From the IMG/VR virus record IMGVR_UViG_3300035053_000291: a stretch of 64,000 nucleotides of DNA, one strand, 5' to 3'. Shown piece by piece: positions 1-59,989 of this stretch. This DNA is from a virus. The stretch's first letter is position 1. Each line of letters begins with the position of its first letter. A model generated the notes under the pieces. That model had not been told where the DNA came from. It did no database searches and saw nothing but the letters and a program-made list of their open reading frames with translations. The translations under genes were made by a program, and so were the position numbers.

Positions 1-344
1 TATCTGGTCACTATCTCCCGGACATTTTCCTGATATTCATTGTTCTCCATCAGTTCTGATACGATGGTGCTGGTCATGGAATAATCCTTGATGTTTTCTG
101 CACTGGCGAACACCAATCCTTTGTATCCGATCAAATTCGTTAACTCGTCGATGAGGTCTTTTGCATCTTCCTGATATGCTGGTTCAGTGTTCTTGACCAC
201 ATGATCAAAATCTGCAGCGCCATGCTGACCGGTATGCTGATAGGATGAACAATTTCCGTTCAGGTCTGCTTTGATGTAGGGAAAAAGAGCGATGTGCTCT
301 CCCTTCGGCCATTTTCTTAATACGACAGTTGTCTGCTCTGCCAT
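1..344 (-). CDS. Hypothetical phage-type protein (runs off window edge), MAEQTTVVLRKWPKGEHIALFP...SYQHTGQHGAA
   Basis: Open frame read manually from ATG 344, GGAGG SD upstream; absent from ORF track. Confidence 0.7.
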   Translation of the reverse strand, partial: MAEQTTVVLRKWPKGEHIALFPYIKADLNGNCSSYQHTGQHGAADFDHVVKNTEPAYQEDAKDLIDELTNLIGYKGLVFASAENIKDYSMTSTIVSELMENNEYQENVREIVTR

Positions 345-346
345 GG

Positions 347-604
347 TTATTCCTCCCACGTTCCTTCATTGATTATGTTTTGTTCTTCCCATGCTTCTTG
401 AGCTTCCTCAAAACTTCGATATCCATTGTCCAGTTCTTCTCCGGTCTTTGCATCTACTATCATGAATATTGACTCTGGAGAAACGACCACTTCTGTGTCT
501 TCTCCTTGATATCCATTTAATTCAACAATTAAAACGTCTTTCATACTGACACTTACAGATAGTTTGCTCTCATTGTGCCAATCTTCCATTATATCTCCTC
601 CCAT
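347..604 (-). CDS. Hypothetical acidic protein
   Basis: ORF track, operon-like packing; true start probably ATG at 589. Confidence 0.65.
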   Translation of the reverse strand: MGGDIMEDWHNESKLSVSVSMKDVLIVELNGYQGEDTEVVVSPESIFMIVDAKTGEELDNGYRSFEEAQEAWEEQNIINEGTWEE

Positions 605-731
605 AAGTATTTCCTAAAAAGGGATCATGTGACGAAGTTAATGTGGCCTGAATGAATAGAAAAAATAATATCAATGCAATGCATAACATTATTGTTTTCA
701 AAAATTTCTTATCCATAATGGCTCTCCTCCA

Positions 732-980
732 TTATTCTTCTAATTCTCTTTTCTTTCGTTCTCTCAATGTCTTGGCAACCTGCATGAGTTTTCCAGCAAG
801 CATCTCTGCTTCTTCCGGAGTGAGTTCGCAATACTGGTTGCCTTCCTCATCCAATCTCAAACAGACGGCATGTAAGTCTGGGTCTGCTTCCACAATGTGG
901 TTAAGATACTTGGTCCAGGAAATAGTTGGTGTAATGCCTATTTCCCGGTCTACCTGTTTCAATCCTCGTATTGCCGTCAT
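732..980 (-). CDS. Hypothetical protein
   Basis: ORF directly downstream of dUTPase. Confidence 0.7.
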   Translation of the reverse strand: MTAIRGLKQVDREIGITPTISWTKYLNHIVEADPDLHAVCLRLDEEGNQYCELTPEEAEMLAGKLMQVAKTLRERKKRELEE

Positions 981-983
981 TTT

Positions 984-1433: not shown

Positions 1434-1438
1434 TGGTA

Positions 1439-1878: not shown

Positions 1879-1882
1879 AAAA

Positions 1883-2162: not shown

Positions 2163-2936
2163 TCAGTCGTTTCTGATCAGCGGTGCGATGATGTAATCGA
2201 CGGAAAGCTGCTCCTCTTCAAAACTATAGGATATCTTTATTGGATTATCCTTGGAGAATCCCACCGTCACCGTTCCGCTGCTGTCTGCTTCCTTCAATGC
2301 CGACTGGATGAATTCGATACTATACATGGAAATATCTTTTCCTGTGGTATCGTAATACGCCAGCTCATCGTCCTTTCTCATGGTTGCCAGAAAATCACTT
2401 GAATGCTCTTGAGATCTGAGCAACAGTTTCTCCGGTTTCGCCTCGAAGATGATCTTGTCATCCACTTGGTTAGCCGCTTTCAATCCCATGGTCAGCAGGC
2501 TTGCTTTGATGTCCAAGTTGGTGGCCAAAGCAAGTTTTGGCACCCTCGGAGATTTAAAGGATGCTAAATCCAACAGAGGTAATCTTCGTCTGATGATACC
2601 GAATTCGACCTTTAACAAATTCACTCCGTTTTCTTTTGACAAGGTGACGATGTCATCTGCATTCGCCAGTCTCAACACATCCTTCAATCCGTTCTTGACG
2701 GTTCCAAATGATTTCAGGTCCACACCGATCTCTGTCTTTCTGGCCTTGAACTCTTCACACAGTTCCGGCTTCAACACCACTGAAACCACGACATTGAGAC
2801 CGGGGTTGTTCATGTCTGTCTTCAATCCATCTTCGTCGATGATCAATTTCGCATCCTGTGATACTTCTACGATCGAATCGACGATCTTCTTCAAAATACT
2901 GGCTTTTACTTTTATTTCAAATTCGTTTTTGTTCAT
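2163..2936 (-). CDS. pcn: DNA polymerase sliding clamp (PCNA), Thermoplasmata-like, divergent
   Basis: PCNA pattern (KKIVDSI..DAKLIIDEDGL, EIGVDL, DNPIKISY, DYIIAP); ATG 2936 follows GGAGG. Confidence 0.9.
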   Translation of the reverse strand: MNKNEFEIKVKASILKKIVDSIVEVSQDAKLIIDEDGLKTDMNNPGLNVVVSVVLKPELCEEFKARKTEIGVDLKSFGTVKNGLKDVLRLANADDIVTLSKENGVNLLKVEFGIIRRRLPLLDLASFKSPRVPKLALATNLDIKASLLTMGLKAANQVDDKIIFEAKPEKLLLRSQEHSSDFLATMRKDDELAYYDTTGKDISMYSIEFIQSALKEADSSGTVTVGFSKDNPIKISYSFEEEQLSVDYIIAPLIRND

Positions 2937-2974
2937 TGCACATTTTCCTCCTTTTTTTTCTTGCTCTGCCATGC

Positions 2975-14022: not shown

Positions 14023-14201
14023 CCATTATCCTCCAATATCTGTTTCATCGCTTCGATTTCTGCATCTGGGAGGACAGGGAAATTTAATTCCCTGAGCCTC
14101 TCATTGAGTTCAACTGCTTCTTTGAGATCCTGTGGATCTCTGTGTTCTACTAATTCGGAAAATATTCCTTCCATGTTTCTTCCACTCCTTTCTGCTCTGC
14201 C

Positions 14202-14648: not shown

Positions 14649-15976
14649 TAGAATGCCACCCTTCCATTCTTTTTGAGTTGGTCGAGTCGTTTGTCCACCT
14701 GGTTCATGTTCGGTTTGTATCTGCGTTGTCGTGGTTTAGATGCTTGTCGTGGTTTGCGGCGTCCTTCCTTCTTGTTTAAGGTAAGGCATTTGGTTGGTTT
14801 GCAGTATATGTTCCCGTTTCTCACATCCAAGACCTCTAATTTCCAGATGCCTTGCACATGACGGAATTTTCGTTGGAACTTGCTGGGAACAATAACATGC
14901 AGATTGGTGTCATTGGTCTTGATGTTATACCAGTCTTTGCCGGTTCCCTGTTCTTTCACAGGTGTCCCAGTGATGTGTTTTGGATGGTCCTTGATGAACT
15001 TCACTGGTTTGGCGACTACTTTCTCGTTGTCTTCCTTGAGTAATTTCATCTGCCAGACGCCGTCTTTCTTGAGGTCGTTCAAGAATGTTTTTGGAATCCA
15101 GACTTTCTTCTCCGTCCGGTCTGTATGAACCACTCGTTGACCGCCGATCTCTGCCTCAAAGTATGATTCTTCTGGGAGGTATCGGACTGGTGCGCATTTC
15201 ACCTTGTCAGTTGTCTCATCCAAAACTTTCATCTCCCAGACGCCTTCTTCGGTCATCGTATCCTTTCCCTTTACGACCCAGATGTCTTTCTGGGTGGCAT
15301 CAGTATAAATGCCTCGTCCATAGACGGCTTTGAATGTATCTTCTTTGATGGTTCTTCTGCGTTCTTTTTCAGCGAGGAATGCTTCCATGTCTGGTTCTCC
15401 GATGATGCGGTCATCGGTCACTTTGTAGACGTGGAATTTGGCATCGATGTCGTTCCAGTTCAAATCGGTGGTGTGTTTCATTGCATCTTTGACGATCCAG
15501 ACCTTCTTCCCATTGAATGTGGTGTTCATCCCTTGGAAATTGACTGGTATCACCGGATTCCATTCCTTGTCGATCCCTGCATCGGTGTAGTCAAGGTCCA
15601 GCTTGGAAAGTTTTTGATCTAACTGTTCTTTCGGGGACAATGGTTTGTTCTGCACGTTTCTGATGAATGATTGTAATTGATTGGTCATCTGGGTTTCTGG
15701 TTCTATGCGTGGTTCCGTTGTTGCTTTGATGTCGTGTTCGCTGACTTCCTTCCACCGGCGGACGATGTCAAACATCTCCCGTGCCCGTTGGGTCCGGGTG
15801 GCCAGTTGTCCTAAGCGATACAATGCGTTCTCCATGCCGTGAACTTCGACATATTTAGCTGCTTTCTTCTCCTGGAACGTGTTGACTTCGATGTTCATTG
15901 AACCAACCTCCAAGAGATTTTCATTTCCAATTCCTTCTTCATGTTTCCACTCTGCCAATTTTTCTGCTTTATTCAT
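14648..15976 (-). CDS. Protein with about four internal beta-rich repeats and a basic C-tail
   Basis: Repeats KKVWI..K...GVWxMKvLde.d.kv.a.P. Confidence 0.75.
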   Translation of the reverse strand: MNKAEKLAEWKHEEGIGNENLLEVGSMNIEVNTFQEKKAAKYVEVHGMENALYRLGQLATRTQRAREMFDIVRRWKEVSEHDIKATTEPRIEPETQMTNQLQSFIRNVQNKPLSPKEQLDQKLSKLDLDYTDAGIDKEWNPVIPVNFQGMNTTFNGKKVWIVKDAMKHTTDLNWNDIDAKFHVYKVTDDRIIGEPDMEAFLAEKERRRTIKEDTFKAVYGRGIYTDATQKDIWVVKGKDTMTEEGVWEMKVLDETTDKVKCAPVRYLPEESYFEAEIGGQRVVHTDRTEKKVWIPKTFLNDLKKDGVWQMKLLKEDNEKVVAKPVKFIKDHPKHITGTPVKEQGTGKDWYNIKTNDTNLHVIVPSKFQRKFRHVQGIWKLEVLDVRNGNIYCKPTKCLTLNKKEGRRKPRQASKPRQRRYKPNMNQVDKRLDQLKKNGRVAF

Positions 15977-16370: not shown

Positions 16371-16663
16371 TACGCTCAACAAACTGCGTTCCTCACCGCC
16401 CGTGTTGAGGGGCAAATTTATGGAAAAAGAGGTCTGGTTTTCATAATGAAATGAAAACCTGGAAGCCTCAGTTTTCTACTCTGCCATTCGTTACTCATAC
16501 CGAATAGGATAGATGTATATAATTGTTTTTATAGGCATTGAAAGTATAAAACAAAAGGGTTAAATATAGGAGACAGCATTAATATTCTTGTAAAGGCGAG
16601 GAAGTGTGTTCGTTGCATTTCCTCTGCTTTTTCTCCGTTTTTGAGTAGGGGGAAAAAATATTA

Positions 16664-25178: not shown

Positions 25179-25609
25179 CTGATGTTCTCCTTGAAAATAC
25201 TATACTTGTCACAATTCCTAAGATGTCTTAAGAGCTTGTTCTCAAAAGAGTTCGTCGTATTGTTGGTTATCAGGATGATATCTATCTCCCCATTCGGGCC
25301 AAGGATGCGTTTTTCCATGAGATACTCTATGTTGTTCTTGTCTGCGACCTGTTTGATCTGCTCTGCCACATGGTCCTCATATTTCCTCCCGCCAAGGATA
25401 TGGAAATTACCGTTGTTGTTATCTCTTATCTCTGCAGTGAGAAGATAGTCGACTCTCAATTGCCCATTGAATGCATTCCGTATCTCCTCCACTTTATTCT
25501 TATGAATCTTATTAGAATTGATAAGGAGTGATCTGACCTGGACATTTCCTGTTGCTTCTTGTTTGATGTGTTCTACTTTGGGATTGAACTTGTTTATCTT
25601 TTCCATCAT
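25175..25609 (-). CDS. Hypothetical protein
   Basis: ORF track, ATGA overlap. Confidence 0.65.
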   Translation of the reverse strand: MMEKINKFNPKVEHIKQEATGNVQVRSLLINSNKIHKNKVEEIRNAFNGQLRVDYLLTAEIRDNNNGNFHILGGRKYEDHVAEQIKQVADKNNIEYLMEKRILGPNGEIDIILITNNTTNSFENKLLRHLRNCDKYSIFKENIR

Positions 25610-37124: not shown

Positions 37125-38012
37125 TTATTTTGCTCTGCCAATTTCTTCGAGACAGAAATCTGTCTCATCGAATTCTTTTTTTGTTCTCTTCCAGCGGTTC
37201 CCGAATGATCTGATGTATCCTTTTCTTTTTAGTTCACGGGTCGCTGATGCTCTTCTTCCTACTCTTAATTCACTGAGGACTCTGGTCTTGAAAAACTTGT
37301 TTGAGGTGTTCGGCTTATCAAGATATTCATCTATCTGGTTGAGTGCTGCCAGTGTGATCAACTGGGATGGAAGGATGATGCGTTTCTTCTTATTGAGTGC
37401 GTTTTCTGTTCTTTTAAGGATCAGTTCCAATTGTTTGTTGGTGAGATTGTGTTTTCCGAATGGATATTTTAACGAATCTAAAATGTTCTTGGGGCGTTTG
37501 TTCTCCTCCCGTAGCTGTTTTTCCAGCTTGAATACCATCTTCTCTGGTGGTTCATACAGCTTTAGATATCCTCCTTTGTTCAGCATCTCCTCTCTGATCT
37601 CAAAAATGTCTATTACTTTTCGTTCTACGCTTCCTTTTTTAAAGGATTTTTCGTTCATCAGGACGAGTCTTGTCTCTTCTTCTTTCTCCTGTTGATCCCT
37701 GCGTTCTAAATATCCTTTTTTGTAGAACGATTCGTTCATCACGACTAATTCTTTAGTTTGTGATGGTTTCTTTTCTTCGGGGATCTGCAATTCAAGTGTT
37801 TGTTGTGTGAGAGAGATGGTCTTTCCTTTGTTGTTTCTTGCTGTTGTTTTTGCTTTTGGTCTTTCCTCTTCTCTGAATTCAACGCCAAGTTTTTCTTGTT
37901 TCAACTCGATTATCTTCATCTCACAGCTTTCCAATCGACCTTGTGTTGCAACTCTCTTATTCTGGGTGATTCTACCCTCCATCTTTTCATCCACTCTGCC
38001 AATTCTTAACAA
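37125..38012 (-). CDS. Hypothetical basic protein, possible wHTH DNA-binding
   Basis: ASATRELKRKGYIRSFG. Confidence 0.65.
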   Translation of the reverse strand: MLRIGRVDEKMEGRITQNKRVATQGRLESCEMKIIELKQEKLGVEFREEERPKAKTTARNNKGKTISLTQQTLELQIPEEKKPSQTKELVVMNESFYKKGYLERRDQQEKEEETRLVLMNEKSFKKGSVERKVIDIFEIREEMLNKGGYLKLYEPPEKMVFKLEKQLREENKRPKNILDSLKYPFGKHNLTNKQLELILKRTENALNKKKRIILPSQLITLAALNQIDEYLDKPNTSNKFFKTRVLSELRVGRRASATRELKRKGYIRSFGNRWKRTKKEFDETDFCLEEIGRAK

Positions 38013-39108: not shown

Positions 39109-39111
39109 TTT

Positions 39112-39261
39112 TCATTCACCTCGGTAGTTTCCTTTTTTATCAACTGGTGCACCACACTTATCACAAAAAAGAAAATCATCTAAATCAAATGTAATCTCAA
39201 TTTTTCTTCTTTTAGAATAGCCTCTTTTCCTTGCTTCCTTCTCAAACTCATCATCATTCAT
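39112..39261 (-). CDS. Cassette ORF, 49 aa with CDKC
   Basis: Manual translation, GGTGA SD. Confidence 0.7.
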   Translation of the reverse strand: MNDDEFEKEARKRGYSKRRKIEITFDLDDFLFCDKCGAPVDKKGNYRGE

Positions 39262-39278
39262 AATCTTGTCACCTTATG

Positions 39279-39440
39279 CTATAACTTATCCAATAAATGT
39301 TGAAAATGATGATATAGAAAATTCAAAGACTCCATCTCGAACTTTAATTTATCAATTTCTTTCTGTTTTTCATCAATCAAATTTTTAATCTCAATTTGAC
39401 GTTGAATCATATCATCTTCATCATTCACAATCCATTGCAT
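39279..39440 (-). CDS. Cassette ORF, 53 aa coiled coil
   Basis: Manual translation. Confidence 0.7.
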   Translation of the reverse strand: MQWIVNDEDDMIQRQIEIKNLIDEKQKEIDKLKFEMESLNFLYHHFQHLLDKL

Positions 39441-39457
39441 AATCTTGTCACCTTATG

Positions 39458-39586
39458 CTAGATTGTGAATCTCTCGTAGTAATCCTCTGGTTTCAATGTA
39501 CCTGCCCTCTTGTATAATTCCCATGAGCGTCTTATTGCTTCCGGGTCATTGAATGCCTCTTCAATATTCACTCTTTTCTTCTTCAT
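39458..39586 (-). CDS. Cassette ORF, 42 aa
   Basis: Manual translation. Confidence 0.7.
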   Translation of the reverse strand: MKKKRVNIEEAFNDPEAIRRSWELYKRAGTLKPEDYYERFTI

Positions 39587-39598
39587 AATCTTGTCACC

Positions 39599-39799
39599 TT
39601 ATGCTAATTTTTCAACTACATTTTCTAATAACTTTTTCAATTCATCAAAAGACAAACGCACCATATCAACGCTATCCTCATTATCTGAATGATGCCTTTC
39701 CCAAATATCAACATATTTCTTATCTACAAAAACAGTAGCCATCTTAAAAGACTCTGATGACTTCCCAAGTTCAATTGTTTCCCTATTATTCTTATCCAT
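39599..39799 (-). CDS. Cassette ORF, 66 aa
   Basis: ORF track; start reassigned to the ATG after GGTGA. Confidence 0.7.
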   Translation of the reverse strand: MDKNNRETIELGKSSESFKMATVFVDKKYVDIWERHHSDNEDSVDMVRLSFDELKKLLENVVEKLA

Positions 39800-39824
39800 T
39801 ATATTCACCAATTATGCTATCTTA

Positions 39825-40040
39825 TCAACTTGCTCGTTTCATCTCAGTTGAAAAATGGTCACTATATTCAAAACATTTAATCAATAATGTATCTGGAAAA
39901 AATGCTACTGCTTTCTCGACATAATCATCAAAATCTTTGAATGATGACTTATCATCTGTTTTCCAAATACCATCTCTCAACTTTTTAGTAAAATCATCAG
40001 CATCAGTATTTTGACCTTTCAACCAATCTGTTTTTTTCAC
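39825..40040 (-). CDS. Cassette ORF, 71 aa
   Basis: ORF track, GGAGG SD, GTG start. Confidence 0.7.
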   Translation of the reverse strand: MKKTDWLKGQNTDADDFTKKLRDGIWKTDDKSSFKDFDDYVEKAVAFFPDTLLIKCFEYSDHFSTEMKRAS

Positions 40041-40061
40041 CTGAAATCCTCCATTTTTATG

Positions 40062-40214
40062 CTATAACTTATTCCTACAATCCTCACAAATTCTTCTAAA
40101 TGAACCATCTTCTTTTTGTTCATCTGCAAGAAATTGAGCAAAACAGATAGGATTATTACAGAGAAATATCGGATAGGTTTCGTATTTCTTTCCACAAATT
40201 TCACAAACACTCAT
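40062..40214 (-). CDS. Cassette ORF, 50 aa Zn finger (CEIC, C-x4-C, CEDC)
   Basis: Manual translation. Confidence 0.7.
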   Translation of the reverse strand: MSVCEICGKKYETYPIFLCNNPICFAQFLADEQKEDGSFRRICEDCRNKL

Positions 40215-40239
40215 TCAATCACCTTTTCAAATTATGCTA

Positions 40240-40311
40240 TTATTGAGTTCTTGATATTAAATATTCAATGAAACTCTTCCATTCTTCTTTTTCTTTTTTA
40301 GTAAATTCCAT
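40240..40311 (-). CDS. Cassette ORF, 23 aa
   Basis: Manual translation between two motifs. Confidence 0.5.
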   Translation of the reverse strand: MEFTKKEKEEWKSFIEYLISRTQ

Positions 40312-40325
40312 ATTTCATCACTATG

Positions 40326-40496
40326 CTAAGATTGTGTTTTTTCCTTTATGGGTTCATACCCAAAATTCATAGACTCCAAATCTTCTTCAATCCTTGAACA
40401 ATCATCAACAAAAGGCAACGCAAATTTTTTACAAAGTCTCAATCCACGAAGTAACTCTCTCTTCTCACTTGCTGTTCTAATTTCTAAATATGGCAT
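40326..40496 (-). CDS. Cassette ORF, 56 aa (MPYLEIR...)
   Basis: Manual translation; shares a 23-nt start context with the 39108 ORF. Confidence 0.7.
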   Translation of the reverse strand: MPYLEIRTASEKRELLRGLRLCKKFALPFVDDCSRIEEDLESMNFGYEPIKEKTQS

Positions 40497-40514
40497 TTTT
40501 CATTCACCTCTATG

Positions 40515-40670
40515 CTATCCAATAAACGGATTGTGTTCTCTTCCTTCTCTCTGTGACTGTTTGAAACTTCTACTATGACAATCGGCACAAAGACCAAGAT
40601 AGATCGGAACATTCTTCGCACCACATCCCTTGCACTTTCCAATTTTATAATCTACTTTATGTCTCATCAT
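40515..40670 (-). CDS. Cassette ORF, 51 aa Zn finger (CKGC, CADC)
   Basis: Manual translation. Confidence 0.7.
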   Translation of the reverse strand: MMRHKVDYKIGKCKGCGAKNVPIYLGLCADCHSRSFKQSQREGREHNPFIG

Positions 40671-40772
40671 TATCACTAGATTTTATGATATTACTGAACT
40701 CGTAGTCCAATAGAATCTTACCTGCTTTTTATTTGGTTGACACAAATCACAATTGCACATTTTTATCTGCCT

Positions 40773-41345: not shown

Positions 41346-41844
41346 TTTGTTTCCTCCCATGTTCTTTATGGTATTCTTCCACACGTTCCTCTTCCATGGC
41401 TCTAAAATATGCTTCTAATCTGTTTGATTTTCTTTTTTCCATTTCTTTCCCTCATTTTCTGCTCTGCCGAATAGATTGGGGATGGGCTGAAGATGGATTC
41501 TTTTGGGATGGTGAGGAAAGATAGATAAAATATAGTCAGCCCATCCAATCCGTACAAGCACTTAAACCATCTTAAACGCTTGTTCATCTATGGAACTTAA
41601 TCGCCGTTTTTATGGCACCTTCATCCACTATGTGCTGTTGCCTGTTCTTTTGGTCGGCTCTGATCTTCTCATCGGTTTTCTGGGTCATTATATCGGGAGT
41701 ACCGAACAGTGGCTTTCTCCTGACACGCTTCTTGATTATATTGTTCATGTCAATCTCTCTGAACTCGCTCTTGTCCTTTTAATCTCTTTTGTGGTCGTGA
41801 TCATTGTTGAGATGGTCGTCCGATTGAAACGCTAATTTGGGTGC

Positions 41845-42300: not shown

Positions 42301-42684
42301 TCAATCTAATTTCTTCTGGACGTTTAAACCCGTGTCTAACAGATTCGCTAACCGGTCCAGTTTCTCTTCCTTCTTCTTTTCCACTCTGCCTTTTATTTTG
42401 TGCATGGTCTTCATCTGTTCCAGCATGATCTCGACGTCCGCAATCTCTTCCACCAGATTGTCAGAAACGGTGTATGACAGGTTCCGCAGATCATTTGACA
42501 CGTATCCATTTCTTATTGATTTGCACTGCTCAAACTGCTTTTCTGCCACTCTGTGCATTAACGGCATCTTGAGGATGCGGGTCAGTTCCATGGACAGTTC
42601 TGCAGTCTCTTCCAAGACCATCAACGACTGGAAGAACATCCCCCATTTCTGCTCTGCCCTTCTGTATAATCGTTCCTTTTCCAT
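42301..42684 (-). CDS. mazG: MazG-like NTP pyrophosphohydrolase
   Basis: VLEETAEL...LVEEIADVEIMLEQM...KKEEKLDRL. Confidence 0.85.
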   Translation of the reverse strand: MEKERLYRRAEQKWGMFFQSLMVLEETAELSMELTRILKMPLMHRVAEKQFEQCKSIRNGYVSNDLRNLSYTVSDNLVEEIADVEIMLEQMKTMHKIKGRVEKKKEEKLDRLANLLDTGLNVQKKLD

Positions 42685-43788: not shown

Positions 43789-43953
43789 AAAAACACGCCT
43801 CCGTTCTGGTGCTTCTTTCTACTCTGCCGTTCTTTGCGCTTTTTCTTGCGCTTCTTTTCTTCCTTTTATCATATGTCTTAAACCCTATTTAATAATTTCG
43901 GCTAATTGAGACAATTATATCATTTGGACAGTTGTCTGCTTGATTATTATTGA

Positions 43954-47511: not shown

Positions 47512-48597
47512 CTATTGATACATAATTCTATCATATTCATCAATCTTCTTTGTTTTTCCTTCTTTCTTCTTGACAGTTGTCGGAATCTCTTCCAACATGG
47601 TCTTGACCTTTGATATATTATCTTCTATGATGTTGATATGTTTCAACAACCCTTTCTGTTTCTTTTCCAATTGTGCTACTCGATCTTCTATGTTTTCGTC
47701 AACTGTCGGCTGTTTTCTGAATTCGTTGATTTCTTTTCTGACCTGTTTGAATTCATTTTCCACATAACCCATCAAATCCCATGATTCCAATGCATCCACT
47801 GCATCATAGAGATCATTATCCAGTAGTGTCTGTTCAAAGTCTGCATTTCCTGAAGACATGTCCAGCATCTTTCCATCGATGTTTAATGAGAATCCTGCCG
47901 CCACTCGCTTTGCTTTTGGCGATAATGCTTTTTTTGTGACGTGTGGTTTCTGGATGCAGTGTAGGTCTTTCCATGATATCCTGATGTGTGCTTTTTTCTG
48001 GAACCATTTGAGCGCTTCGTAGACAATAGAGAATATGGCTACTCTTGCCGAGTCTAATGATTCTTTTGCAAATGGCATTTCTGGAATTATAATAATCAGA
48101 TTATCTTTACCGTGTTTTTCGAACGTCCATGCATCGAATTCATCGAAGATTTTGACCTTGTATTTGCGGACTGCACAATTTCCTCTATCATATTTGTTAC
48201 ATTTCTCGAAGAAACTACTGTACTCTCTCTCAATCTTGGTTTGATACCTCGCCTTCTGTAGAACGATTTCACGTCTAGGTCGTGGTTTGGTTGACAACTT
48301 TTTTTGGTCGTCTTCATCGTCTTTTTTCAGTTTGTAGACATCGTCAAACTCAATATATGTTGCTTCGTAGAATTTGATTCTTTCTTCAGGATTGATACAT
48401 TTGATTAAGTTATTTTTTTGGAATTCTTTAATTGTTTTTGAAACATATTGTCTACTAATACCGACGTATTTGGCAACTTTTGACTGTGTTAGCTGGTATC
48501 CTTTTCCATCCTTATGTTGCCCGGTTAACAGTTCATAGATCTCTTTTTTCTTATTGTTAGCCGATTTCACACCATCCCTCGTTTCTGCTCTGCCCAT
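47512..48597 (-). CDS. N-terminal wHTH protein, possible replication or regulatory protein; C-terminus MYQ
   Basis: LTQSKVAKYVGISRQYVSKTIKEFQKNNLI; probable GTG start near 48571. Confidence 0.7.
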   Translation of the reverse strand: MGRAETRDGVKSANNKKKEIYELLTGQHKDGKGYQLTQSKVAKYVGISRQYVSKTIKEFQKNNLIKCINPEERIKFYEATYIEFDDVYKLKKDDEDDQKKLSTKPRPRREIVLQKARYQTKIEREYSSFFEKCNKYDRGNCAVRKYKVKIFDEFDAWTFEKHGKDNLIIIIPEMPFAKESLDSARVAIFSIVYEALKWFQKKAHIRISWKDLHCIQKPHVTKKALSPKAKRVAAGFSLNIDGKMLDMSSGNADFEQTLLDNDLYDAVDALESWDLMGYVENEFKQVRKEINEFRKQPTVDENIEDRVAQLEKKQKGLLKHINIIEDNISKVKTMLEEIPTTVKKKEGKTKKIDEYDRIMYQ

Positions 48598-50224
48598 TTG
48601 TTTTTAATCCACTAAACCACCCTATTGTCAACCAAGTTGTCAACCAAGCTGACAAGGCGGTTTTCATTGCGTCTTTCCTCACCATTTTGCTAGTCCCATC
48701 CAGCAGAAACTTTGGTGAGATTCTAAAATAATATAATTGCTTTGATAAAAATATATTCGTTGTTGGTTTACCACCTCCAAAAAAAAGAAAGAAAAAGGGG
48801 ATCACAATGCATTCAAAACTGGGCCGAAATCGAAAAGTTTCGAACAGAATCTCTCCCGTTGGCCATTCCTGGGCCTCGGCGGGCCCATACTCGCTTCTCG
48901 AAGGGATTCCATTCGAAACAGGGGTTTTTGGCCCTTGTTTCGATTTTAGCGTACTTTCCTCTCTCCATTTTTTTGGAAATTTGAGGGCACGCTTGACCCA
49001 GTCAAAATGATGTCGATAATAATATTCTTCAGCATGTTGAAGATACCGTTCTTCAGTTGTTTTGATGGTATCGTGTCCTAAGAATGTGCTTACCCATCGT
49101 ATCGGATCTGGGTGTTTTTCTTCCCATTTATGTGTGATCCACATGATTGCTGCTGTATGCCGCATACAATATGGGTGATATCTCTCATCAACCAATTTCC
49201 CTTTCAGCCTGAGATTTTTTCCAAATGTTTTCAGAGTCCATGGTTTTCCAGTATATGGTGAAATAAACAGTCTGTCCCCTTTGTAATTTGGCGACACGAA
49301 CTTCGGTCTGATTCGGTAGTAGAAATTAGAGAAACTTTTTCTTGTCTTTGCATGCAACAATGAGTCAATAAGATACAACGGTCTTGTGGAATAGTGCTTT
49401 TTCTTTTCCACAACTCGGATATATGGTCTTTTCAGATCGTAAAGGTGGTTTGTCCGCATCATCCAGAGTTCGCTTGGCGGTCTAACACCCAACATAAATC
49501 CAAAGAAGAAAATGTATTGCCAGTACCTGTTTATTTCACGATCGTCATCGTATCCATCAAAGTGAAAAAACTTCGTGAATGTTTTAGGTTCCAACACCAA
49601 TACTTCTTTTCTTTCTGGTTTTGGCGGTAGACGATACTTATTCCATGGGTGATCTGGTAGGCCATATGCTTGTCTAAATGCTTCAGTTACATCTTTCCGA
49701 TGTTTGAGTCCGTAAAAGTTTTTTCCTGTTTCAGCGTCATAATAGTTTTGCTTATACCATTTCATGTGGTACCTGAATTGAGCGTAGTTTAGATTGAAAA
49801 AATCTATTGGAAAGGGATTCTCCTTTTCTGATGTTGCCATCAATCTTGCATATCGGCGGTAATGATTTATTGTTTCTTCTGACCGGTATAATTCTTCATC
49901 TGCATATTGTAAAACTGCATTGAGTAGTTCTTCAAATGTCTCATACGCTGAAGGATCTATAGCAAAAGGGTCTGCATTGTGATTGTTAATTATCTTGCTT
50001 ACATTTTTATGTTCCACCTGCCCCCCAACCTTTGTGGTTGATCTTCGGTCGACAAGTGGGCGTCCAAAATTGTTTTCTTTGCATTCTTCTTTTGTACCTC
50101 CCCCGTCTGCTTCTCGAGACGGTGGGAGTATATTGTTCTCTTTCTCTTTATTATTTTCCCTATTATCTAAATTAAATGAAAACGAAATGTTTTGGTTTGA
50201 TTCGTGTTCTTTTTCCCATCTCAT
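48557..50224 (-). CDS. int: Tyrosine recombinase/integrase
   Basis: GVRPPSEL (Arg), HPYCMRHT, FLGHDTIKTTEERY; low-complexity C-terminal extension after YGPAE. Confidence 0.9.
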   Translation of the reverse strand: MRWEKEHESNQNISFSFNLDNRENNKEKENNILPPSREADGGGTKEECKENNFGRPLVDRRSTTKVGGQVEHKNVSKIINNHNADPFAIDPSAYETFEELLNAVLQYADEELYRSEETINHYRRYARLMATSEKENPFPIDFFNLNYAQFRYHMKWYKQNYYDAETGKNFYGLKHRKDVTEAFRQAYGLPDHPWNKYRLPPKPERKEVLVLEPKTFTKFFHFDGYDDDREINRYWQYIFFFGFMLGVRPPSELWMMRTNHLYDLKRPYIRVVEKKKHYSTRPLYLIDSLLHAKTRKSFSNFYYRIRPKFVSPNYKGDRLFISPYTGKPWTLKTFGKNLRLKGKLVDERYHPYCMRHTAAIMWITHKWEEKHPDPIRWVSTFLGHDTIKTTEERYLQHAEEYYYRHHFDWVKRALKFPKKWREESTLKSKQGPKTPVSNGIPSRSEYGPAEAQEWPTGEILFETFRFRPSFECIVIPFFFLFFGGGKPTTNIFLSKQLYYFRISPKFLLDGTSKMVRKDAMKTALSAWLTTWLTIGWFSGLKTNGQSRNEGWCEIG

Positions 50225-50610
50225 CCGCTATTTCCTACACGGAAGTGCGGGAGCAATTGAGAGCAAATACTCTCACCAAATAGTTGTGCAAATGCAAAAT
50301 GCACATCTTTCCTACTTCTGCTCTGCCCGCACCATCAAGGTGCAAACCCCTATAATGGAATAAGATGTATATTAATGTGTTTTTATTTTTACAGGATAGC
50401 GACAGGTGTCAGCTGAAAAAAAGAGAGGAAATAATGGCGCCAACGACGATGCCACACATAGTACAAACAGTGTAGAACATCAGTTTGACTGCCAACATTC
50501 TTCGTTCCCATGGATTGAGATTCACGTCAGCACCACCGTCAAAATTATCAGGACAATTCCATAGGCAGAAACACCAGAGGACACAAGCAACGCTTCCTTC
50601 TGTTCTTTGT

Positions 50611-52161: not shown

Positions 52162-52674
52162 CTATTCCTCCTTTTTTCTGCTCTGCCTTTTTTCCGTCAG
52201 CAAACGGATCAGGTCGTCACCTGTCCGCTCGTTGAGTTCTTGAATTCCCGTAAGATGGATGTAGGTTTCTGCCAGTGCTTTCCCATGGCTTCCCTCGCCG
52301 GAATAATCTGTTGCTCCTCCGCAGATGATGTGATGGATCTGCTGAGTCTGGTCACCTTCTTTCAGCATCTCCGCACCAAAATAGATGTGGTTCTGATTGT
52401 CACCCATAGGAATCTTCCACTGCTCGAATCCGATGATATAATATCCTTCTCTCCTTAATTCCTGCACCTTTCTGATCCACTGGCCGATACTTGACGTGTA
52501 GCCATCCATGCCGATCCAGAGAACGGTATCGCTGATGGGAATCAGTTCAATCTCTATGGTGCCGTAGACCGGATATTTACCCGATAAAATCTTGGTGACA
52601 TCCTCCATCAGATCTCCTTTATTGTATTGTTGCATGGTGGGTCCTCCCTTTCTGCTTTGCCAGATCGAATGCAT
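52162..52674 (-). CDS. Hypothetical protein
   Basis: ORF track; probable start MQQYNK. Confidence 0.65.
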   Translation of the reverse strand: MHSIWQSRKGGPTMQQYNKGDLMEDVTKILSGKYPVYGTIEIELIPISDTVLWIGMDGYTSSIGQWIRKVQELRREGYYIIGFEQWKIPMGDNQNHIYFGAEMLKEGDQTQQIHHIICGGATDYSGEGSHGKALAETYIHLTGIQELNERTGDDLIRLLTEKRQSRKKEE

Positions 52675-53149: not shown

Positions 53150-53313
53150 CTTTCCTCACTTTTTTCTGCTCTGCCATTATTATGCGATGCTTCCTTCTGA
53201 AAACACCTCAAGAACCTTAAAAATTGTTTTTTCATATTTTTTATTGATCAGGTAGGTGGTTTCAGTGTTTCCTTCTTTTATGATTACTTCCATTTATTTT
53301 TCCTCCAGTTTTT

Positions 53314-53742: not shown

Positions 53743-53952
53743 TTAAACTCCTGTTTTGATTCTTCTCAATTTCTTCGTCGAAACCGTTATCTCTTGGTTC
53801 TTTCCCATAATCCTTACTACTGATTTTACTCCGTTCACTCGCTTTATTAACATTGCTTTCTGAATCTTTCCATCGACAAAAACACCGCAGGTGTCTCCGA
53901 TGGTCAACTGGTCTTTGTACATTTTTTCCTCCTTTTTTTCTTGCTCTGCCAT
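53743..53952 (-). CDS. Small beta (SH3-like) protein
   Basis: ORF track; probable start MYKDQ. Confidence 0.55.
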   Translation of the reverse strand: MAEQEKKEEKMYKDQLTIGDTCGVFVDGKIQKAMLIKRVNGVKSVVRIMGKNQEITVSTKKLRRIKTGV

Positions 53953-56642: not shown

Positions 56643-58599
56643 CCCAGAATAGTCTATTCAGTTTCTTTTCCTCATCACTTATGTTGTATGTTTCATCATC
56701 TATTTCTGATGCATTAACATACAATTGATTCATATCAAGTGTCTCAAGAAGGAAGGTCTTTTGTTCTTCAATGGACAACTGTCGGAAATCATCAATGTGT
56801 TCGTTGACCTTTTTGATGTCGACTTTGTAATTGAGGAAAGCGTTTTCCTGAAGATTGTTCCACAAGTCTAACAGTTCTTCACTGGTTTCTGCGGATTCTA
56901 TCTTTTCCACCCATTTCTGATTCCATTTTGCGAGTTCACAGTAAACCAAGTCTCCTCCACCTTGCCAGTTTACTTTTTTTGATATCCCTGTTGTGTAACC
57001 ATTAACAACGTTCTTCAGGCGGGCGACGCTGTCGTTTTTACCATAGTCTAATTGTTCAATACCAATATATTGTCTCCCCAGCTTATGTGCTACCGCTGCA
57101 GTTGTTCCAGAACCTAAAAAGAAATCTAAGACAATATCCTCTTTCTTTGTATTCATCTCGATTATTCGACGCAAGAGTTTTTCTGGTTTTTTACCATTCT
57201 TTAATTTTACTCCTCCTTCAGGAGCGATTCCCTGCCATGATATATCCGTCCACAGTGAACCCAATTCTGTTCCAATTATTTTGTTGCCATCTATGTCTTT
57301 TTTAAGGTTCTTTGAATAGAATCTAACCATCTCTCCTTTATAGCAAATGATGTCTTCTTTCTCTTCTCTTTCGTATACGGCCCATGTATCTTCTTTAGAC
57401 TTGTTCATTGCTTGTTTTAACCCTGCGCCAGCCCCTTTTGGAGAAATAGTTCGAAATATTCTGTTCAAGTTCTTAAAAACAAAATCATAAAGTAGTTTTT
57501 CATTTTTCTTATTCTCTTCTCCTTTTTCTGCAACAAATTCATCTAATACTCTCCCAATTTCCCATTTTCTAAAATCTTTTTCTTCAGGATTCAAAATTAT
57601 TTTATTATATGCTTTGTCAACATCTGACTTCACCCAAAGAGGTTTGTACTCTCTCATATCATAATTTTTTGCATATATCAATCCATATTCACAATTTTTT
57701 GGCATAAATGGATTTTGGTATTCATTTGCCGCTCCGACATTTGCTTTTATTTCAACATACTGAACAAAATTATCTTTTCCTTTTGGAGATTTTTTGAATA
57801 CCTCATCCGCTAATATTTTTAGATAAGATAATTCATTATCATCACAATGAATAAATATTGTTCCTTTTTCATCCAATAACTCTTTTGCTATCTCCAATCT
57901 ATTTTTCATAAATGTTAGCCATGTTGAATGATTAAAACGATCGTTGTAAAATGCCTCCGCATCTATATTGAATGGAACATCAATGTAGATGAGTTTTACT
58001 CTTCCAAGATATTTTTTCTTTAGAGTGTGTAATGCTAACAGGTTGTTTCCTTTTATGATGAGATTATCTTCATCGTTCAAATCCTTGACCTTATGCTCTC
58101 CATGCTGATCTATCCGTTTGAAATTGGTCAGTACCTTTGGTTCCAATAATGTCAGCACTTCATCTGGCGCTAATGTTTTATTGTAGAATATCTCATCCCG
58201 TTTCTGATCTTCCTTGGTCATTCCCCCAGCCAATACGCAATCTTTGTACGGCCAGACCAGAGAAACTTCTTTGTTCTTCCGTAAGAGTTCTCCACCAATA
58301 GAGAGTCCTATCTTCTGACCAAATGCAGTATAGGAATCCTGCAGGAATTCCTTATTCTTCATGAAATTGATGAATTTGTCTTTATCAAAGACAACTGTCT
58401 GCCCATCCTTTGTTGGTATGTCACTAAAAAAGTGTTTTTTCAGTGCTTCCTCTTCTAATAATAATTTCAATAAGGTCTGATCGTTCTTCAAGGCCAACTC
58501 CACGGCCTTTTCTTTCAATATTCTTTTCTCAGAATCTGACAGATCCTGATGTGAACGTAAAACTGATACTAAGTCTTCCTCAAAATGTTTTTGATTCAT
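56635..58599 (-). CDS. mod: Type III DNA methyltransferase Mod subunit
   Basis: IKGNNL, IYIDVPFN (motif IV variant), GKKPEKLL, LDFFLGSGTT; adjacent to Res. Confidence 0.93.
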   Translation of the reverse strand: MNQKHFEEDLVSVLRSHQDLSDSEKRILKEKAVELALKNDQTLLKLLLEEEALKKHFFSDIPTKDGQTVVFDKDKFINFMKNKEFLQDSYTAFGQKIGLSIGGELLRKNKEVSLVWPYKDCVLAGGMTKEDQKRDEIFYNKTLAPDEVLTLLEPKVLTNFKRIDQHGEHKVKDLNDEDNLIIKGNNLLALHTLKKKYLGRVKLIYIDVPFNIDAEAFYNDRFNHSTWLTFMKNRLEIAKELLDEKGTIFIHCDDNELSYLKILADEVFKKSPKGKDNFVQYVEIKANVGAANEYQNPFMPKNCEYGLIYAKNYDMREYKPLWVKSDVDKAYNKIILNPEEKDFRKWEIGRVLDEFVAEKGEENKKNEKLLYDFVFKNLNRIFRTISPKGAGAGLKQAMNKSKEDTWAVYEREEKEDIICYKGEMVRFYSKNLKKDIDGNKIIGTELGSLWTDISWQGIAPEGGVKLKNGKKPEKLLRRIIEMNTKKEDIVLDFFLGSGTTAAVAHKLGRQYIGIEQLDYGKNDSVARLKNVVNGYTTGISKKVNWQGGGDLVYCELAKWNQKWVEKIESAETSEELLDLWNNLQENAFLNYKVDIKKVNEHIDDFRQLSIEEQKTFLLETLDMNQLYVNASEIDDETYNISDEEKKLNRLFWGE

Positions 58600-58615
58600 G
58601 CTATTTCCTCCTTTC

Positions 58616-59200
58616 TTAATGCAACTCTACTTCAATCATTCGTTCCTTTTTTACCTTGCACATGCTACACACACGGCAATTACCCGGGCACTTGTATTCT
58701 GCGTCCTCTGAATATGAGTCAACAGTCATAAACATGTTGTCCAACATGAATCCAGAACCAGTGACCACCATGTTCTTTGGTCTGTTGCTGAAGTCCAGGT
58801 CATGTCTTGCGGTGTAGCCGTAGACGATCACATCCGTGTTGTCAACTAACATGGTTGAGATGTCAACCATTTTGTCAACATCCTCTTGTGCTTCGAAGTC
58901 ACCTGACTCGCTGAACCGGAGATATTTGATATCTGCAGGTACCAGCCGCATCTGTGCCATTAAGTCCTGTGCGATGTTCTCTGCATCAGTTGCTTTCCAG
59001 TATGCCTCCTGTTTCCTCCGATAGGGCAACACCTGTGGATATAAGCGTTCCGCTTTCAGTGCATAACATCGTTTCGGGTTTTCCAACGGACACAATCCCC
59101 GTTTCCTGGACGGGCAATCCATTGCTGCATTCATGTTCAGGATCAGTGTGTCCTCACCGATCTTTCTGTTCCCATTCGACACTTTAAGTGTCGGATGCAT
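58616..59200 (-). CDS. Phage Gp88-like protein
   Basis: GNRKIG...CPS...C..CYA...RFSESGDF...YGYT. Confidence 0.75.
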   Translation of the reverse strand: MHPTLKVSNGNRKIGEDTLILNMNAAMDCPSRKRGLCPLENPKRCYALKAERLYPQVLPYRRKQEAYWKATDAENIAQDLMAQMRLVPADIKYLRFSESGDFEAQEDVDKMVDISTMLVDNTDVIVYGYTARHDLDFSNRPKNMVVTGSGFMLDNMFMTVDSYSEDAEYKCPGNCRVCSMCKVKKERMIEVELH

Positions 59201-59241
59201 CTCTGCACCTGTCCGTTGTTCTGCTCTGCCGTTCTAAGATT

Positions 59242-59733
59242 TCAGGATATTCTGCTTACATTAATCCGTTCTTCTTCAACTCCCTTATTGATTAATACTT
59301 TTTTAACTCTTTGCCTGATCTCTTTTTTCATGGTGTTTCTTGTCACATTAACCACCTCTGGTTCTCCTTCTATTCCATGTCGTTTTCTCATGTGTCTTTT
59401 GCCATGATAAATGGCTTTGCTTCTTCGCATGGGCTTGTTCCCATGTCCCTTACATCCTTCCACCGGGCAGACCCAGATGGCTTTTCTAAACGAAGTCGAT
59501 ACTTGCAGTACCTTGTCCTTCTTGACGACGATGGGTTTGATGCCATCAGTGGATAAGATGCCATGCTGTGCCCGCAAGTGGTCTTTCCCGTTTTCCATTG
59601 CTCTCCCTTTGGTCGTTGCTTTTCCTCCTCTGGAGAGACAGTTGTCCATCGGGCATTGCCAAATCCATTCTTTTTTGTTCTTTTTGTCACTCATTTCTTT
59701 ATTCCTCCTCAAAAAACTACGTTTACGCAACAA
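59242..59733 (-). CDS. Tandem C2H2-type Zn-finger protein
   Basis: WQCPMDNC...HLRAQH and WVCPVEGC...HMRKRH. Confidence 0.75.
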   Translation of the reverse strand: MLRKRSFLRRNKEMSDKKNKKEWIWQCPMDNCLSRGGKATTKGRAMENGKDHLRAQHGILSTDGIKPIVVKKDKVLQVSTSFRKAIWVCPVEGCKGHGNKPMRRSKAIYHGKRHMRKRHGIEGEPEVVNVTRNTMKKEIRQRVKKVLINKGVEEERINVSRIS

Positions 59734-59989
59734 TCTTTTCTGTTACTTTCAATATCTTTTACTATGTAATTTATATAAAAACAAATATATTCGATACATT
59801 TTTATACTACTTACTGATTAACGATTGACTAGGCAGATACAGGGTCTGTCTCCATGTTTTTTAATAACCTGGAACCTCCTTGTTTCTGCTCTGCCAATTA
59901 AGGTGGGGGTGCAATTCCCCTGCCTTTTCTTATCACTTTTCTAAAAGACTTTTTATCTCTTAAAGGCTTGTCAGGCGTTATTGAAAGTA

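Follow-up and report, generated by a model that had tools for sequence, protein, structure and literature searches.

Why does a short purine-rich sequence recur directly ahead of ribosome-binding sites in the 64,000-nt stretch of DNA analysed here (the window), which belongs to a virus- or plasmid-like element that is archaeal on the basis of its PCNA and TrmB? The earlier note had proposed either an RNA-level signal, namely a binding site for an antitermination, translation or processing factor, or a polar DNA signal such as a KOPS- or Chi-like sequence or a co-oriented type III site.

Occurrence and orientation of the motif

The motif is the 13-base purine-rich sequence GGCAGAGCAGAAA on the minus strand of the window; all genes of the element are on that strand, and GGCAGAGCAGAAA is thus in the coding orientation. 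Its plus-strand reading, taken as the 9-mer TGCTCTGCC, occurs 16 times on the plus strand, at exactly the positions listed in the earlier note, and not once on the other strand of the whole window, as had also been claimed; dinucleotide shuffles gave a mean of 0.32 copies and a maximum of 3. The 7-base core GGCAGAG has 24 coding-strand copies and a single copy on the opposite strand, versus 5.7 expected for both strands pooled. Two GGCAGAGTAG variants had been reported, and the one near 43817 is where it was placed (43819-43828), but that given as ~16457 lies about 20 nt away, at 16476-16485. With additional variants (GGCAAAGCAGAAA and GGCAGAGTGGATG once each, GGCAGAGTGGAAA twice), exact copies and variants amount to about 22 sites, listed below with positions (+) counted from the first G of the motif; C19 is a colinear relative.

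59883..59895, minus: GGCAGAGCAGAAA; orphan in a 295-nt gap, GGAGG at +16, no ORF; position conserved in C19 (site 1593)
59218..59230, minus: GGCAGAGCAGAAC; 3 nt past a stop codon; ATG 59200, 30 nt from the first G, of the GP88-like gene heading the type III R-M operon; orthologous C19 site 1883 is GGCAGAACGAGAC
53938..53950, minus: GGCAGAGCAAGAA; 4 nt past the Res stop codon; ATG 53922 (59 aa) at +28
53163..53175, minus: GGCAGAGCAGAAA; adjoins the Shine-Dalgarno sequence (SD) of the HTH_7 gene (ATG 53149, +26); orthologous C19 site 6314
52649..52661, minus: GGCAAAGCAGAAA variant; lies within the preceding ORF, at its 3' end; ATG 52635 at +26
52175..52187, minus: GGCAGAGCAGAAA; lies within the preceding ORF, at its 3' end; ATG 52158 at +29
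50315..50327, minus: GGCAGAGCAGAAG; orphan, with the integrase ORF about 100 nt downstream; a TATA-like TTAATATA precedes the motif by 48 nt; ortholog in C19 is site 7742
48582..48594, minus: GGCAGAGCAGAAA; precedes a wHTH gene (GTG 48570, +24); core present at this junction in L208, L211, L209/C19 and L227
47496..47508, minus: GGCAGAGCAGAAA; 3 nt past the wHTH gene stop codon; ATG 47479 at +29, of a gene not in C19; L208 has GCAGAGCAGAAAA at this junction
43816..43828, minus: GGCAGAGTAGAAA variant; ATG 43788 at 40 nt; orthologous C19 site 11313 has an equally long spacer
42646..42658, minus: GGCAGAGCAGAAA; 26 nt into annotated ORF 42684..42301, whose true start may be downstream
42378..42390, minus: GGCAGAGTGGAAA variant; intragenic
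41456..41468, minus: GGCAGAGCAGAAA; ATG 41442 (34-aa ORF) at +26
37988..38000, minus: GGCAGAGTGGATG variant; precedes a 285-aa gene (ATG 37982); a TATA-like GTTATATA precedes the motif by 38 nt; ortholog in C19 is site 13743
37127..37139, minus: GGCAGAGCAAAAT; overlaps the preceding stop codon; ATG 37110 at +29; junction without the motif in C19/L124
31838..31850, minus: GGCAGAGCAGAAA; 3 nt past a stop codon; GTG 31821 at +29
25355..25367, minus: GGCAGAGCAGATC; intragenic, without the GAAA tail, probably non-functional
16473..16485, minus: GGCAGAGTAGAAA variant; orphan heading the ORF-poor 16.3-21.3 kb region; GAGG at +16; TATA-like ATTATATA 38 nt upstream
15944..15956, minus: GGCAGAGTGGAAA variant; 20 nt into a 442-aa ORF
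14189..14201, minus: GGCAGAGCAGAAA; immediately 3' of a TAA stop codon; ATG 14174 at +27, of the first gene in a tightly packed block down to ~3 kb
2958..2970, minus: GGCAGAGCAAGAA; 4 nt past a stop codon; precedes the PCNA gene (ATG 2936); GGCAGAGCAGAAA in relative L184 (~93% identical)
330..342, minus: GGCAGAGCAGACA; overlaps an ATG (345) with its own SD; atypical copy

Position relative to stop codons, SDs and starts

About 15 genes are preceded by the motif just 5' of the ribosome-binding site, and at 12 or 13 of the 19 best sites it lies between a stop codon and the next SD. Eleven of the 16 exact copies are at a junction with the start codon 24-34 nt past the first G, two (59895 and 50327) occupy longer intergenic gaps and lack an ORF behind them, and three (42658, 25367 and 342) are intragenic or overlap a start codon, so that the earlier count of twelve copies in gaps or last codons was about right. 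The reported A-run with an SD a few nucleotides later is also real: the SD begins 15-19 nt past the first G, and +16 is a G in 14 of 19 sites. When curated starts were used, the start codon was 24-30 nt past the first G at 11-12 of 19 sites; with the automatic gene list, from which the background was taken, 6 of 19 sites had a gene start 24-32 nt downstream versus 1.7% of positions (binomial P = 5e-7). The spurious MAEQ starts attributed to the motif are present at 2970 and 48594 (MAEQ/MGRA pseudo-starts), but the ATG at 342 has its own SD and may be genuine.

An SD-like run is still found at +14 to +16 of the three orphan copies that have no ORF. The SD-adjacent spacing is kept despite a free spacer (139 nt upstream at 53175, and also at 38000 and 41468), and it is kept where the motif must overlap the upstream ORF (52661, 52187, 48594 and 37139); because the spacing is held under both circumstances, it appears to be selected and not forced. 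Spacers at the motif junctions are expanded to about 30-40 nt, whereas the remaining junctions of the window are much tighter.

Conservation in relatives

C19 and the window share 60-75% amino-acid identity, and the heptamer is kept at seven orthologous junctions, where the flanks have diverged past alignment. The 3' extension is uniform in each genome and differs by lineage (CAGAAA in the window, and AGRGTA, CGGAG or ACGA in others), the pattern expected if the sites co-evolve with an element-encoded reader. Given that the core is kept at the same junctions of diverged relatives, we conclude that the motif is a real gene-expression signal. It is not a signal of the host: in the 2.2-Mb genome bin of a relative, five of the 12 GGCAGAGAG copies are on a 28.7-kb element contig and the other seven are off junctions; as a junction motif it is confined to this contig.

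Promoters and predicted RNA structure

When the upstream regions were scanned, no BRE/TATA element was detected at promoter distance at most motif sites. At three sites the motif is preceded by a near-perfect TATA-like box, at distances of 38, 38 and 48 nt (comparable boxes occur in 1.4% of random windows), and the predicted boxes at these three sites would place the motif near +9 of the transcript, within the transcribed leader. TATA-type promoters without the motif are located at 59779 and 23445. Predicted unpairedness was 0.66 in the motif leaders versus 0.53 (P = 0.002), a difference that may be a mere effect of purine composition. A second enriched motif, GTTGACAA, is present in tandem pairs and in both orientations, and behaves like a classical DNA operator, in contrast to the GGCAGAG motif of the same element.

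Discussion

The start-associated sequences (SAS) of Cluster K mycobacteriophages (PMC3203893), the function of which was still unverified in 2025 (PMC12699233), resemble the motif in being 13-nt, asymmetric, present in 11-19 copies nearly all in one orientation, and immediately upstream of starts. Both cluster in the non-structural genome region, frequently overlap the preceding stop codon, are missing from the host genome, and are conserved across sub-lineages before unrelated genes. However, SAS (GGGATAGGAGCCC) includes the SD and is 3-7 bp from the start, whereas the motif is 5' of a separate SD and 24-30 nt from the start; the two have no sequence similarity, and the motif has no ESAS-like inverted repeats. 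Unlike SAS, the motif has an archaeal host and consists of an invariant heptamer with a lineage-specific tail.

The polar DNA signal could be invoked because of the complete strand bias and the type III Mod/Res pair in the window, but it is already largely refuted and we regard it as scarcely credible. Chi or KOPS would spread through coding sequence, while the copies cluster at ribosome-binding sites; when the copies were masked, all motif 5- and 6-mers were found on both strands at Markov-expected frequency (CAGAG 76 versus 19, GCAGA 133 versus 37), and since each sub-motif of this length is also present on the other strand, none of the type III, Chi and KOPS readings holds. C19, moreover, keeps the GGCAGAG core yet has an MmeI-like R-M system, unlike the type III system of the window. 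The main rival, although we consider it unlikely, deserves more attention: an element-encoded repressor would occupy the asymmetric 13-bp site in double-stranded DNA and block RNA polymerase in an orientation-dependent manner, at promoters and inside operons, silencing the integrated element. Every positional fact also fits a DNA-bound protein that blocks elongation, and because all genes are co-directional, orientation relative to transcription is inseparable from orientation relative to replication. Stoperators, the sites of L5 gp71-type repressors in Cluster A mycobacteriophages (PMC6550527, PMC9283540), are likewise 13-bp and asymmetric, number about two dozen per genome, and occupy intergenic positions in temperate elements, all oriented the same way relative to transcription, with a consensus that drifts between lineages as it tracks the repressor (PMC6550527). 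The approximately 20 sites of the motif lie in short intergenic spaces, three of them just past predicted TATA boxes, a usual position for archaeal repressors; orphan sites between transcription units are conserved, and the element encodes an integrase and several HTH proteins. Stoperators, however, are bound on DNA by a demonstrated monomeric repressor and have no tie to the SD, whereas the motif has a putative binder and a tight SD tie, and a roadblock needs neither SD adjacency where there is room elsewhere nor forced overlap with coding sequence. In the single HTH protein that was examined, the recognition helix is invariant, even in the motif-poor L224, and this protein appears to have the GTTGACAA repeats as its own. 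That the motif is an unconventional promoter or initiator, recognised by a transcription factor or polymerase which the element encodes, seems quite improbable. The distance to the start codon approximates the TATA position for a leaderless mRNA, a pyrimidine immediately precedes the motif in 14 of 19 sites, and virus-specific regulatory sequences upstream of archaeal-virus early and anti-defence genes (PMC11065993) and the intergenic repeats of halovirus HF2 (PMC8707807) are, like the motif, genome-specific, conserved, and located before many small accessory genes; but those sequences are built on a BRE/TATA core promoter, which the motif lacks, being predicted downstream of the transcription start. 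RNA polymerase, TBP and TFB domains are absent from the top 25 of 32 Pfam families among the window ORFs, three sites carry their own upstream TATA-like box, and an SD located past such a promoter but ahead of the start codon would stay untranscribed. We hold in similarly low regard a recombination linker, a short shared junction (integron- or PeSL-like) for gene gain, loss or swap with secondary effects on expression. The copies at 53950, 52661, 52187, 47508, 42658 and 41468 precede genes not in C19, similarity to L184 drops sharply about 90 nt beyond the 2970 copy, and the window has further junction repeats (the TAGCATAA array). On the other hand, inserted blocks do not have the motif on both flanks (the right end of the 47.5-kb insertion has none), many variable-region junctions are without it, inverted-repeat structure is absent, a sequence of 7-13 nt offers very little length for homologous exchange, and the SD tie is left unaccounted for.

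The translational operators of phage T4 RegA and the STAB-SD elements that stabilise Bacillus mRNAs are short stretches of single-stranded RNA, located at or next to the ribosome-binding site, and they set the translation or stability of several mRNAs. The motif would resemble them in its putative RNA role, but the sequences are unrelated. A factor-free version of such a role, in which the purine tract and SD would form an unstructured ribosome standby site or a STAB-SD-like 5' stabiliser, uncoupling the gene from upstream translation or protecting the RNA from 5'-3' decay, is an improbable explanation in our view. It agrees with a predicted unpaired purine tract, with an SD-like run that always follows, even without an ORF, and with the expanded spacers; however, it needs neither an invariant heptamer across 50-90% protein divergence nor a genome-uniform extension, and the motif is not used by the host bin. 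It is very unlikely that the motif is the seed target of a trans-acting antisense RNA from the element: the invariant 7-nt core resembles an sRNA seed, and the sole CUCUGCC on the transcribed strand, at 21211, falls in a region that is poor in ORFs and strongly structured (z = -4.1), but a single 7-mer match is the chance expectation, complementarity ends after the core, and the 21211 region has no counterpart in the bin of the relative.

The best reading, which we hold tentatively with a probability of roughly 0.36, is an RNA-level operator adjoining the ribosome-binding site and read by an element-encoded factor. It is preferred because of the SD tie, the absence of promoters from most sites, the predicted leader position and single-strandedness, and the conservation of the core. 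The RNA-level proposal of the earlier note agrees with all tests as far as a translation or processing factor is concerned, but antitermination is unlikely with about 20 dispersed sites. No RNA-binding protein was identified for the element, which counts against the RNA reading, and the orphans at 59895 and 50327, conserved in C19 without an ORF, are awkward for a purely translational role. We infer that GGCAGAG and its lineage-specific extension would act as a transcribed cis-element of intercistronic spacers and 5' leaders, immediately ahead of the SD, where the unpaired purine tract would be bound sequence-specifically by the putative element-encoded factor. This factor would control ribosome access, mRNA stability, or both, by either repression or activation, at about 15-20 genes, most of them non-structural; the set would comprise PCNA, two HTH regulators, small accessory genes, the leader of the R-M operon, and the integrase region.

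A one-orientation motif beside ribosome-binding sites

The earlier note on this DNA had placed TGCTCTGCC at 16 positions of the + strand and at none of the other strand, and our recount agreed exactly (16:0; shuffle mean, 0.32). Composition skews and the ORF map indicated that essentially all genes in the window lie on the minus strand, and the motif therefore reads GGCAGAGCA on the coding strand. Alignment of the copies lengthened it to GGCAGAGCAGAAA, in which the core heptamer GGCAGAG is followed by a 3' extension (the tail); sites are named here by the coordinate of the first G on the minus strand. On the 5' side lies a short A/T-rich patch, often the stop codon of the upstream gene. The A-run and Shine-Dalgarno (SD) sequence that had been described on the 3' side were also seen in the aligned copies, and 14 of the 19 sites carry G at +16. 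No dyad is present in the motif, and the Rfam covariance models gave zero matches at the gathering threshold across the entire window. The GGCAGAG heptamer has a strand ratio of 24:1, with 5.7 occurrences expected on both strands summed. When variants are included, the family comprises approximately 22 sites; the variants are as follows.

52661, minus strand: variant GGCAAAGCAGAAA
43828 and 16485, minus strand: variant GGCAGAGTAGAAA
38000, minus strand: variant GGCAGAGTGGATG
42390 and 15956, minus strand: variant GGCAGAGTGGAAA

Thirteen of the 16 exact copies lie in gene junctions, and at 11-12 of the 19 best sites the start codon of a real ORF is found 24-30 nt past the first G, which bears out the bias toward gene starts that the earlier note had claimed. 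In the automatic gene list, a gene start falls in the 24-30 nt range for just 1.7% of positions, and 6 sites were captured (P = 5e-7). The spurious MAEQ starts that had been attributed to the motif were recovered as well, in that it exposes false MAEQ/MGRA starts. The distance from the end of the motif to the separate SD is 2-6 nt. A stop codon often lies 0-4 nt ahead of the motif (59230, 53950, 47508, 31850, 14201, and 2970), and in more crowded stretches (52661, 52187, 48594, and 37139) it extends over the end of the preceding ORF. Free spacer is available at 53175, 38000, and 41468, yet the motif adjoins the SD there. Three copies (59895, 50327, and 16485) have no ORF behind them, yet all three keep a run resembling an SD at +14 to +16. 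Twelve of the 19 sites are in the 41-60 kb accessory region, which carries the integrase, HTH proteins, type III R-M, and numerous small genes; the dense 3-14 kb block is bounded by one copy at the head and another at the end and has none in between.

The element that carries the motif

Pfam searches of the window identified PCNA (the gene behind 2970), TrmB/MarR-type regulators, dUTPase, RNase H, a tyrosine integrase, a CDC48-like AAA ATPase, and type III Mod/Res. PHROGs added resolvase and nucleotide-metabolism families, ARAGORN detected one tRNA-Met, and inteins are present in homologues of the 739-aa NTPase. Based on this content, we conclude that the element is an archaeal, integrative, virus- or plasmid-like element. 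A 12-kb megablast query of a public phage collection returned no match, scans of IMG/VR proteins that used the 739-aa NTPase and an alignment of the wHTH protein (a conserved 352-aa product of the gene just behind site 48594) gave no relatives, and an IMG/VR 14-mer scan produced single chance matches only. At 38880-40700 on the minus strand, about ten very small genes form an array joined by another junction motif, (A)TAGCATAA, which usually provides the stop codon; GGTGA/GGAGG comes after it, ahead of the start of the following gene.

Conservation of the motif among relatives

Protein searches of metagenomic contigs uncovered approximately 25 NTPase homologues and 12 wHTH homologues. In the closely related contig L184 (~93% DNA identity upstream of the junction), GGCAGAGCAGAAA is kept at the ortholog of the 2970 junction, and the surrounding spacer carries indels. 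In the comparison of window 2163-2936 with L184, identity drops from the ~93% of the genes that precede the 2970 junction to ~50-60% at ~90 nt into the PCNA gene, which reflects either a breakpoint in a mosaic or rapid evolution of PCNA. At the two junctions that flank the wHTH gene, the motif is retained in contig L208 (84% amino-acid identity) as GGCAGAGCAG and GCAGAGCAGAAAA; the wHTH junction of L211 and of L227 carries GGCAGAACGA.

C19, a contig of an NCBI genome bin, shows 60-75% amino-acid identity and is colinear with the window from 61.4 to 21.4 kb. Its first 19.4 kb (L209) contain six GGCAGAG copies, all on the coding strand, where 1.55 are expected, and these six have the consensus GGCAGAGAG(R)GTA. 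Seven window sites (59895, 59230, 53175, 50327, 48594, 43828, and 38000) have a C19 site at the orthologous junction, at which the flanking bases are unalignable. The window copies that lack a C19 counterpart are mostly ahead of genes absent from C19. Contig L225 has five copies of consensus GGCAGAGCGGAG (expected, 0.74). Because the cores are conserved and the tails differ among these relatives, the heptamer is old and fixed, and tails are alike throughout any one genome and vary between lineages. The distant relatives L120-L123 (~50% identity) have no motif; their contigs span the core module only, which is motif-poor in the window too.

The 2.2-Mb bin that holds C19 has 12 GGCAGAGAG matches, five of them on the 28.7-kb C19 contig and the remaining seven outside junctions. 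The junction copies in this bin are thus confined to the C19 contig, which for this relative indicates that the motif is the element's signal rather than the host's. Neither mcrA nor a 16S rRNA gene was found in the bin.

Several observations on these contigs are recorded separately. The ~4-kb block of the small-gene array at 38880-40700 is missing from C19. The 555-aa integrase ORF (window 48557-50224) and the 182-aa ORF at G002:C19:7843-8391 have in common the N-terminal ~85 aa and the C-terminal ~38 aa, so the catalytic core is missing from the C19 ORF; this may be a deletion, or int may be interrupted as in elements with the att site inside int. In L225:5420-9159, a gene for cofactor-independent phosphoglycerate mutase immediately follows a motif variant, GGCAGAGCGGAGT, and PALP and PAPS-reductase genes come next; the element either carries these as auxiliary metabolic genes or is an integrated copy with host DNA on that flank. 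The repeats CGATAAAGA (L124) and TATGTTGA (L120) proved to be coding-sequence artefacts. A GTDB scan with a 20-nt pattern gave mostly single chance matches and one repeat family, on 15 contigs of a 700-kb bacterial bin, where a 15-mer of the motif lies inside an unrelated MITE-like ~200-nt repeat; this was judged a coincidence of scanning 1.2e12 positions. The bin concerned (G001; contigs L126, L134, L137, and L159-L173) has a bacterial 23S rRNA gene and carries the repeat on at least 15 contigs, with the 15-mer GGCAGAGCAGAAAAA adjoining CTCGCTCGCTTAC; the repeat appears unrelated to the archaeal motif.

The motif as a probable transcribed leader element

The aligned copies showed no conservation between -45 and -8 of the motif, and a TATA-like box within 2 mismatches was absent at 16 of the 23 scanned sites. 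A BRE/TATA core promoter is therefore not supported at most sites, as there is no box at promoter distance. An unconventional promoter is improbable. Boxes with at most 1 mismatch from TTTATATA, which occur in 1.4% of random windows, were found at 38000, 16485, and 50327, at 38, 38, and 48 nt upstream, respectively. The A/T-rich TATA box of archaeal promoters, which has a purine-rich BRE ahead of it, is usually centred near -26, which would put the motif at about +9 of the predicted transcript. Good TATA boxes without the motif lie at 59779 and 23445. A conserved AGTATAAAAA...ATATATTT block, likely a BRE/TATA promoter, is found at window 59690-59800 and L209:1680-1790, ~100 nt downstream of an orphan motif copy in both. 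Given that most sites lack a promoter box and that three have one upstream, the motif is most simply interpreted as a transcribed leader or intercistronic element.

Predicted folding indicated that motif leaders are more unpaired than other SD-bearing leaders (0.66 vs 0.53, P = 0.002), and no complement of 8 nt or longer to the motif exists on the transcribed strand in the window, so the motif would be presented single-stranded. One 7-nt complement occurs, at 21211; that the motif is the target of an antisense-RNA seed is highly improbable. The ORF-poor stretch at 21000-21330 (minus strand), upstream of tRNA-Met, has a much stronger predicted fold than its shuffles (z = -4.1) and contains GGCAGAG at 21279, with the sole CUCUGCC of the window 68 nt downstream, at 21211.

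A second enriched motif, (G)GTTGACAA, has 13 copies versus 3.2 expected and includes the following locations.

48625-48644: (G)GTTGACAA
34297-34316: (G)GTTGACAA
58839-58879: (G)GTTGACAA

In the window, and likewise in L208, L211, L209, and L225, tandem pairs of GTTGACAA, 12 nt apart and in both orientations, precede the wHTH gene. In this GTTGACAA behaves like a conventional DNA operator, and it is probably the wHTH protein's operator or a set of iterons. Lineages whose motif tails differ, and the motif-poor L224 too, share an unchanged recognition helix in the wHTH protein, so its target is probably GTTGACAA rather than GGCAGAG. The 352-aa wHTH protein is thus an unlikely reader of the motif, both because its helix is invariant despite the tail differences and because GTTGACAA looks like its own site.

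Which molecule is read

The earlier note had offered two families of explanation, an RNA-level signal and a polar DNA signal, and the former is the one that we favour. In this reading, a factor encoded by the element would recognise the motif on RNA beside the SD, and we assign it a probability of about 0.36 on the grounds of selected SD adjacency, strict single orientation, and predicted single-stranded presentation. The polar-DNA family did not hold up and has next to no chance of being right. With the copies masked, every 5- and 6-mer sub-motif occurred at the Markov expectation on both strands, which eliminates a co-oriented type III site, and C19 retains the motif core though its R-M system differs. 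A Chi- or KOPS-like signal would be spread regardless of gene starts, whereas these copies are tied to ribosome-binding sites, 13 of 16 in junctions. An orientation-dependent DNA roadblock, of the type formed by the stoperators of Cluster A mycobacteriophages, fits the same site map and is the reading toward which the conserved orphan sites lean; we consider it somewhat unlikely. Since all genes are co-directional, orientation relative to transcription is inseparable from orientation relative to replication.

A standby site or stabiliser that acts without any factor is a rather doubtful alternative to RNA-level recognition. A recombination linker is equally as improbable as an unconventional promoter, and an integron attC or cassette array, which has a structured imperfect inverted repeat at each cassette boundary, was rejected because the motif lacks a dyad, many junctions are motif-free, and inserted blocks are not flanked on both sides. 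RNA-level recognition could also take a more specific form, which we regard as quite unlikely: the GGCAGAG leaders would be the address labels of a private, element-encoded archaeal translation control, in which a reader that recognises the sequence on single-stranded RNA would dock beside the SD. Either a protein or a structured RNA of the element could serve as this reader, perhaps together with the element's unusual initiator tRNA.

Discussion

Among described signals, the nearest is the start-associated sequence (SAS) of Cluster K mycobacteriophages, an asymmetric 13-nt motif whose 11-19 copies, in one orientation, adjoin start codons of the non-structural arm; the host lacks it, and its function is unknown (PMC3203893), still unverified in a later account (PMC12699233). 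The present motif resembles it in layout and is not a member of it. Both are 13-nt, asymmetric, and in a single orientation (here 16 exact copies plus variants, 16:0). With regard to the absence of SAS from its host, the junction signal of the relative C19 is confined to the element contig within the 2.2-Mb bin. In contrast, SAS incorporates the SD core and is separated from the start by 3-7 bp, whereas our motif precedes a separate SD with the start 24-30 nt from the first G; the sequences also differ (SAS consensus, GGGATAGGAGCCC), as do the carriers, a mycobacteriophage and an archaeal element. The Cluster A stoperators are likewise asymmetric 13-bp intergenic sites in one orientation relative to transcription, at which the immunity repressor binds dsDNA and blocks elongation (PMC6550527, PMC9283540). 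With regard to stoperator-type co-variation with a repressor, the tail differs by lineage, and the recognition helix is invariant in the one HTH protein aligned. Regulatory motifs of archaeal viruses (PMC11065993, PMC8707807) are built around BRE/TATA, unlike the present motif, which has neither.

Strand-specific motifs attached to gene starts were already known from mycobacteriophages, in which stoperators revealed a new mode of repression and the SAS class is unexplained 15 years after its description. The present motif is an archaeal counterpart whose anatomy is clear: the 7-nt core is invariant, the tail is genome-uniform and lineage-variable, and the place beside the ribosome-binding site is fixed, with no promoter. 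This pattern of core, tail, and position points to a co-evolving reader in the archaeal element family, the proteins of which are almost all orphans. The motif is useful for gene calling and marks a co-regulated gene set. If the private translation control is real, the element would have its own switch over ~20 genes and some non-coding RNAs, independent of host transcription, and SAS-type signals would gain a first mechanistic handle. The identity of the reader would show how the element regulates its accessory genes and could provide a portable expression tag for archaeal genetics.
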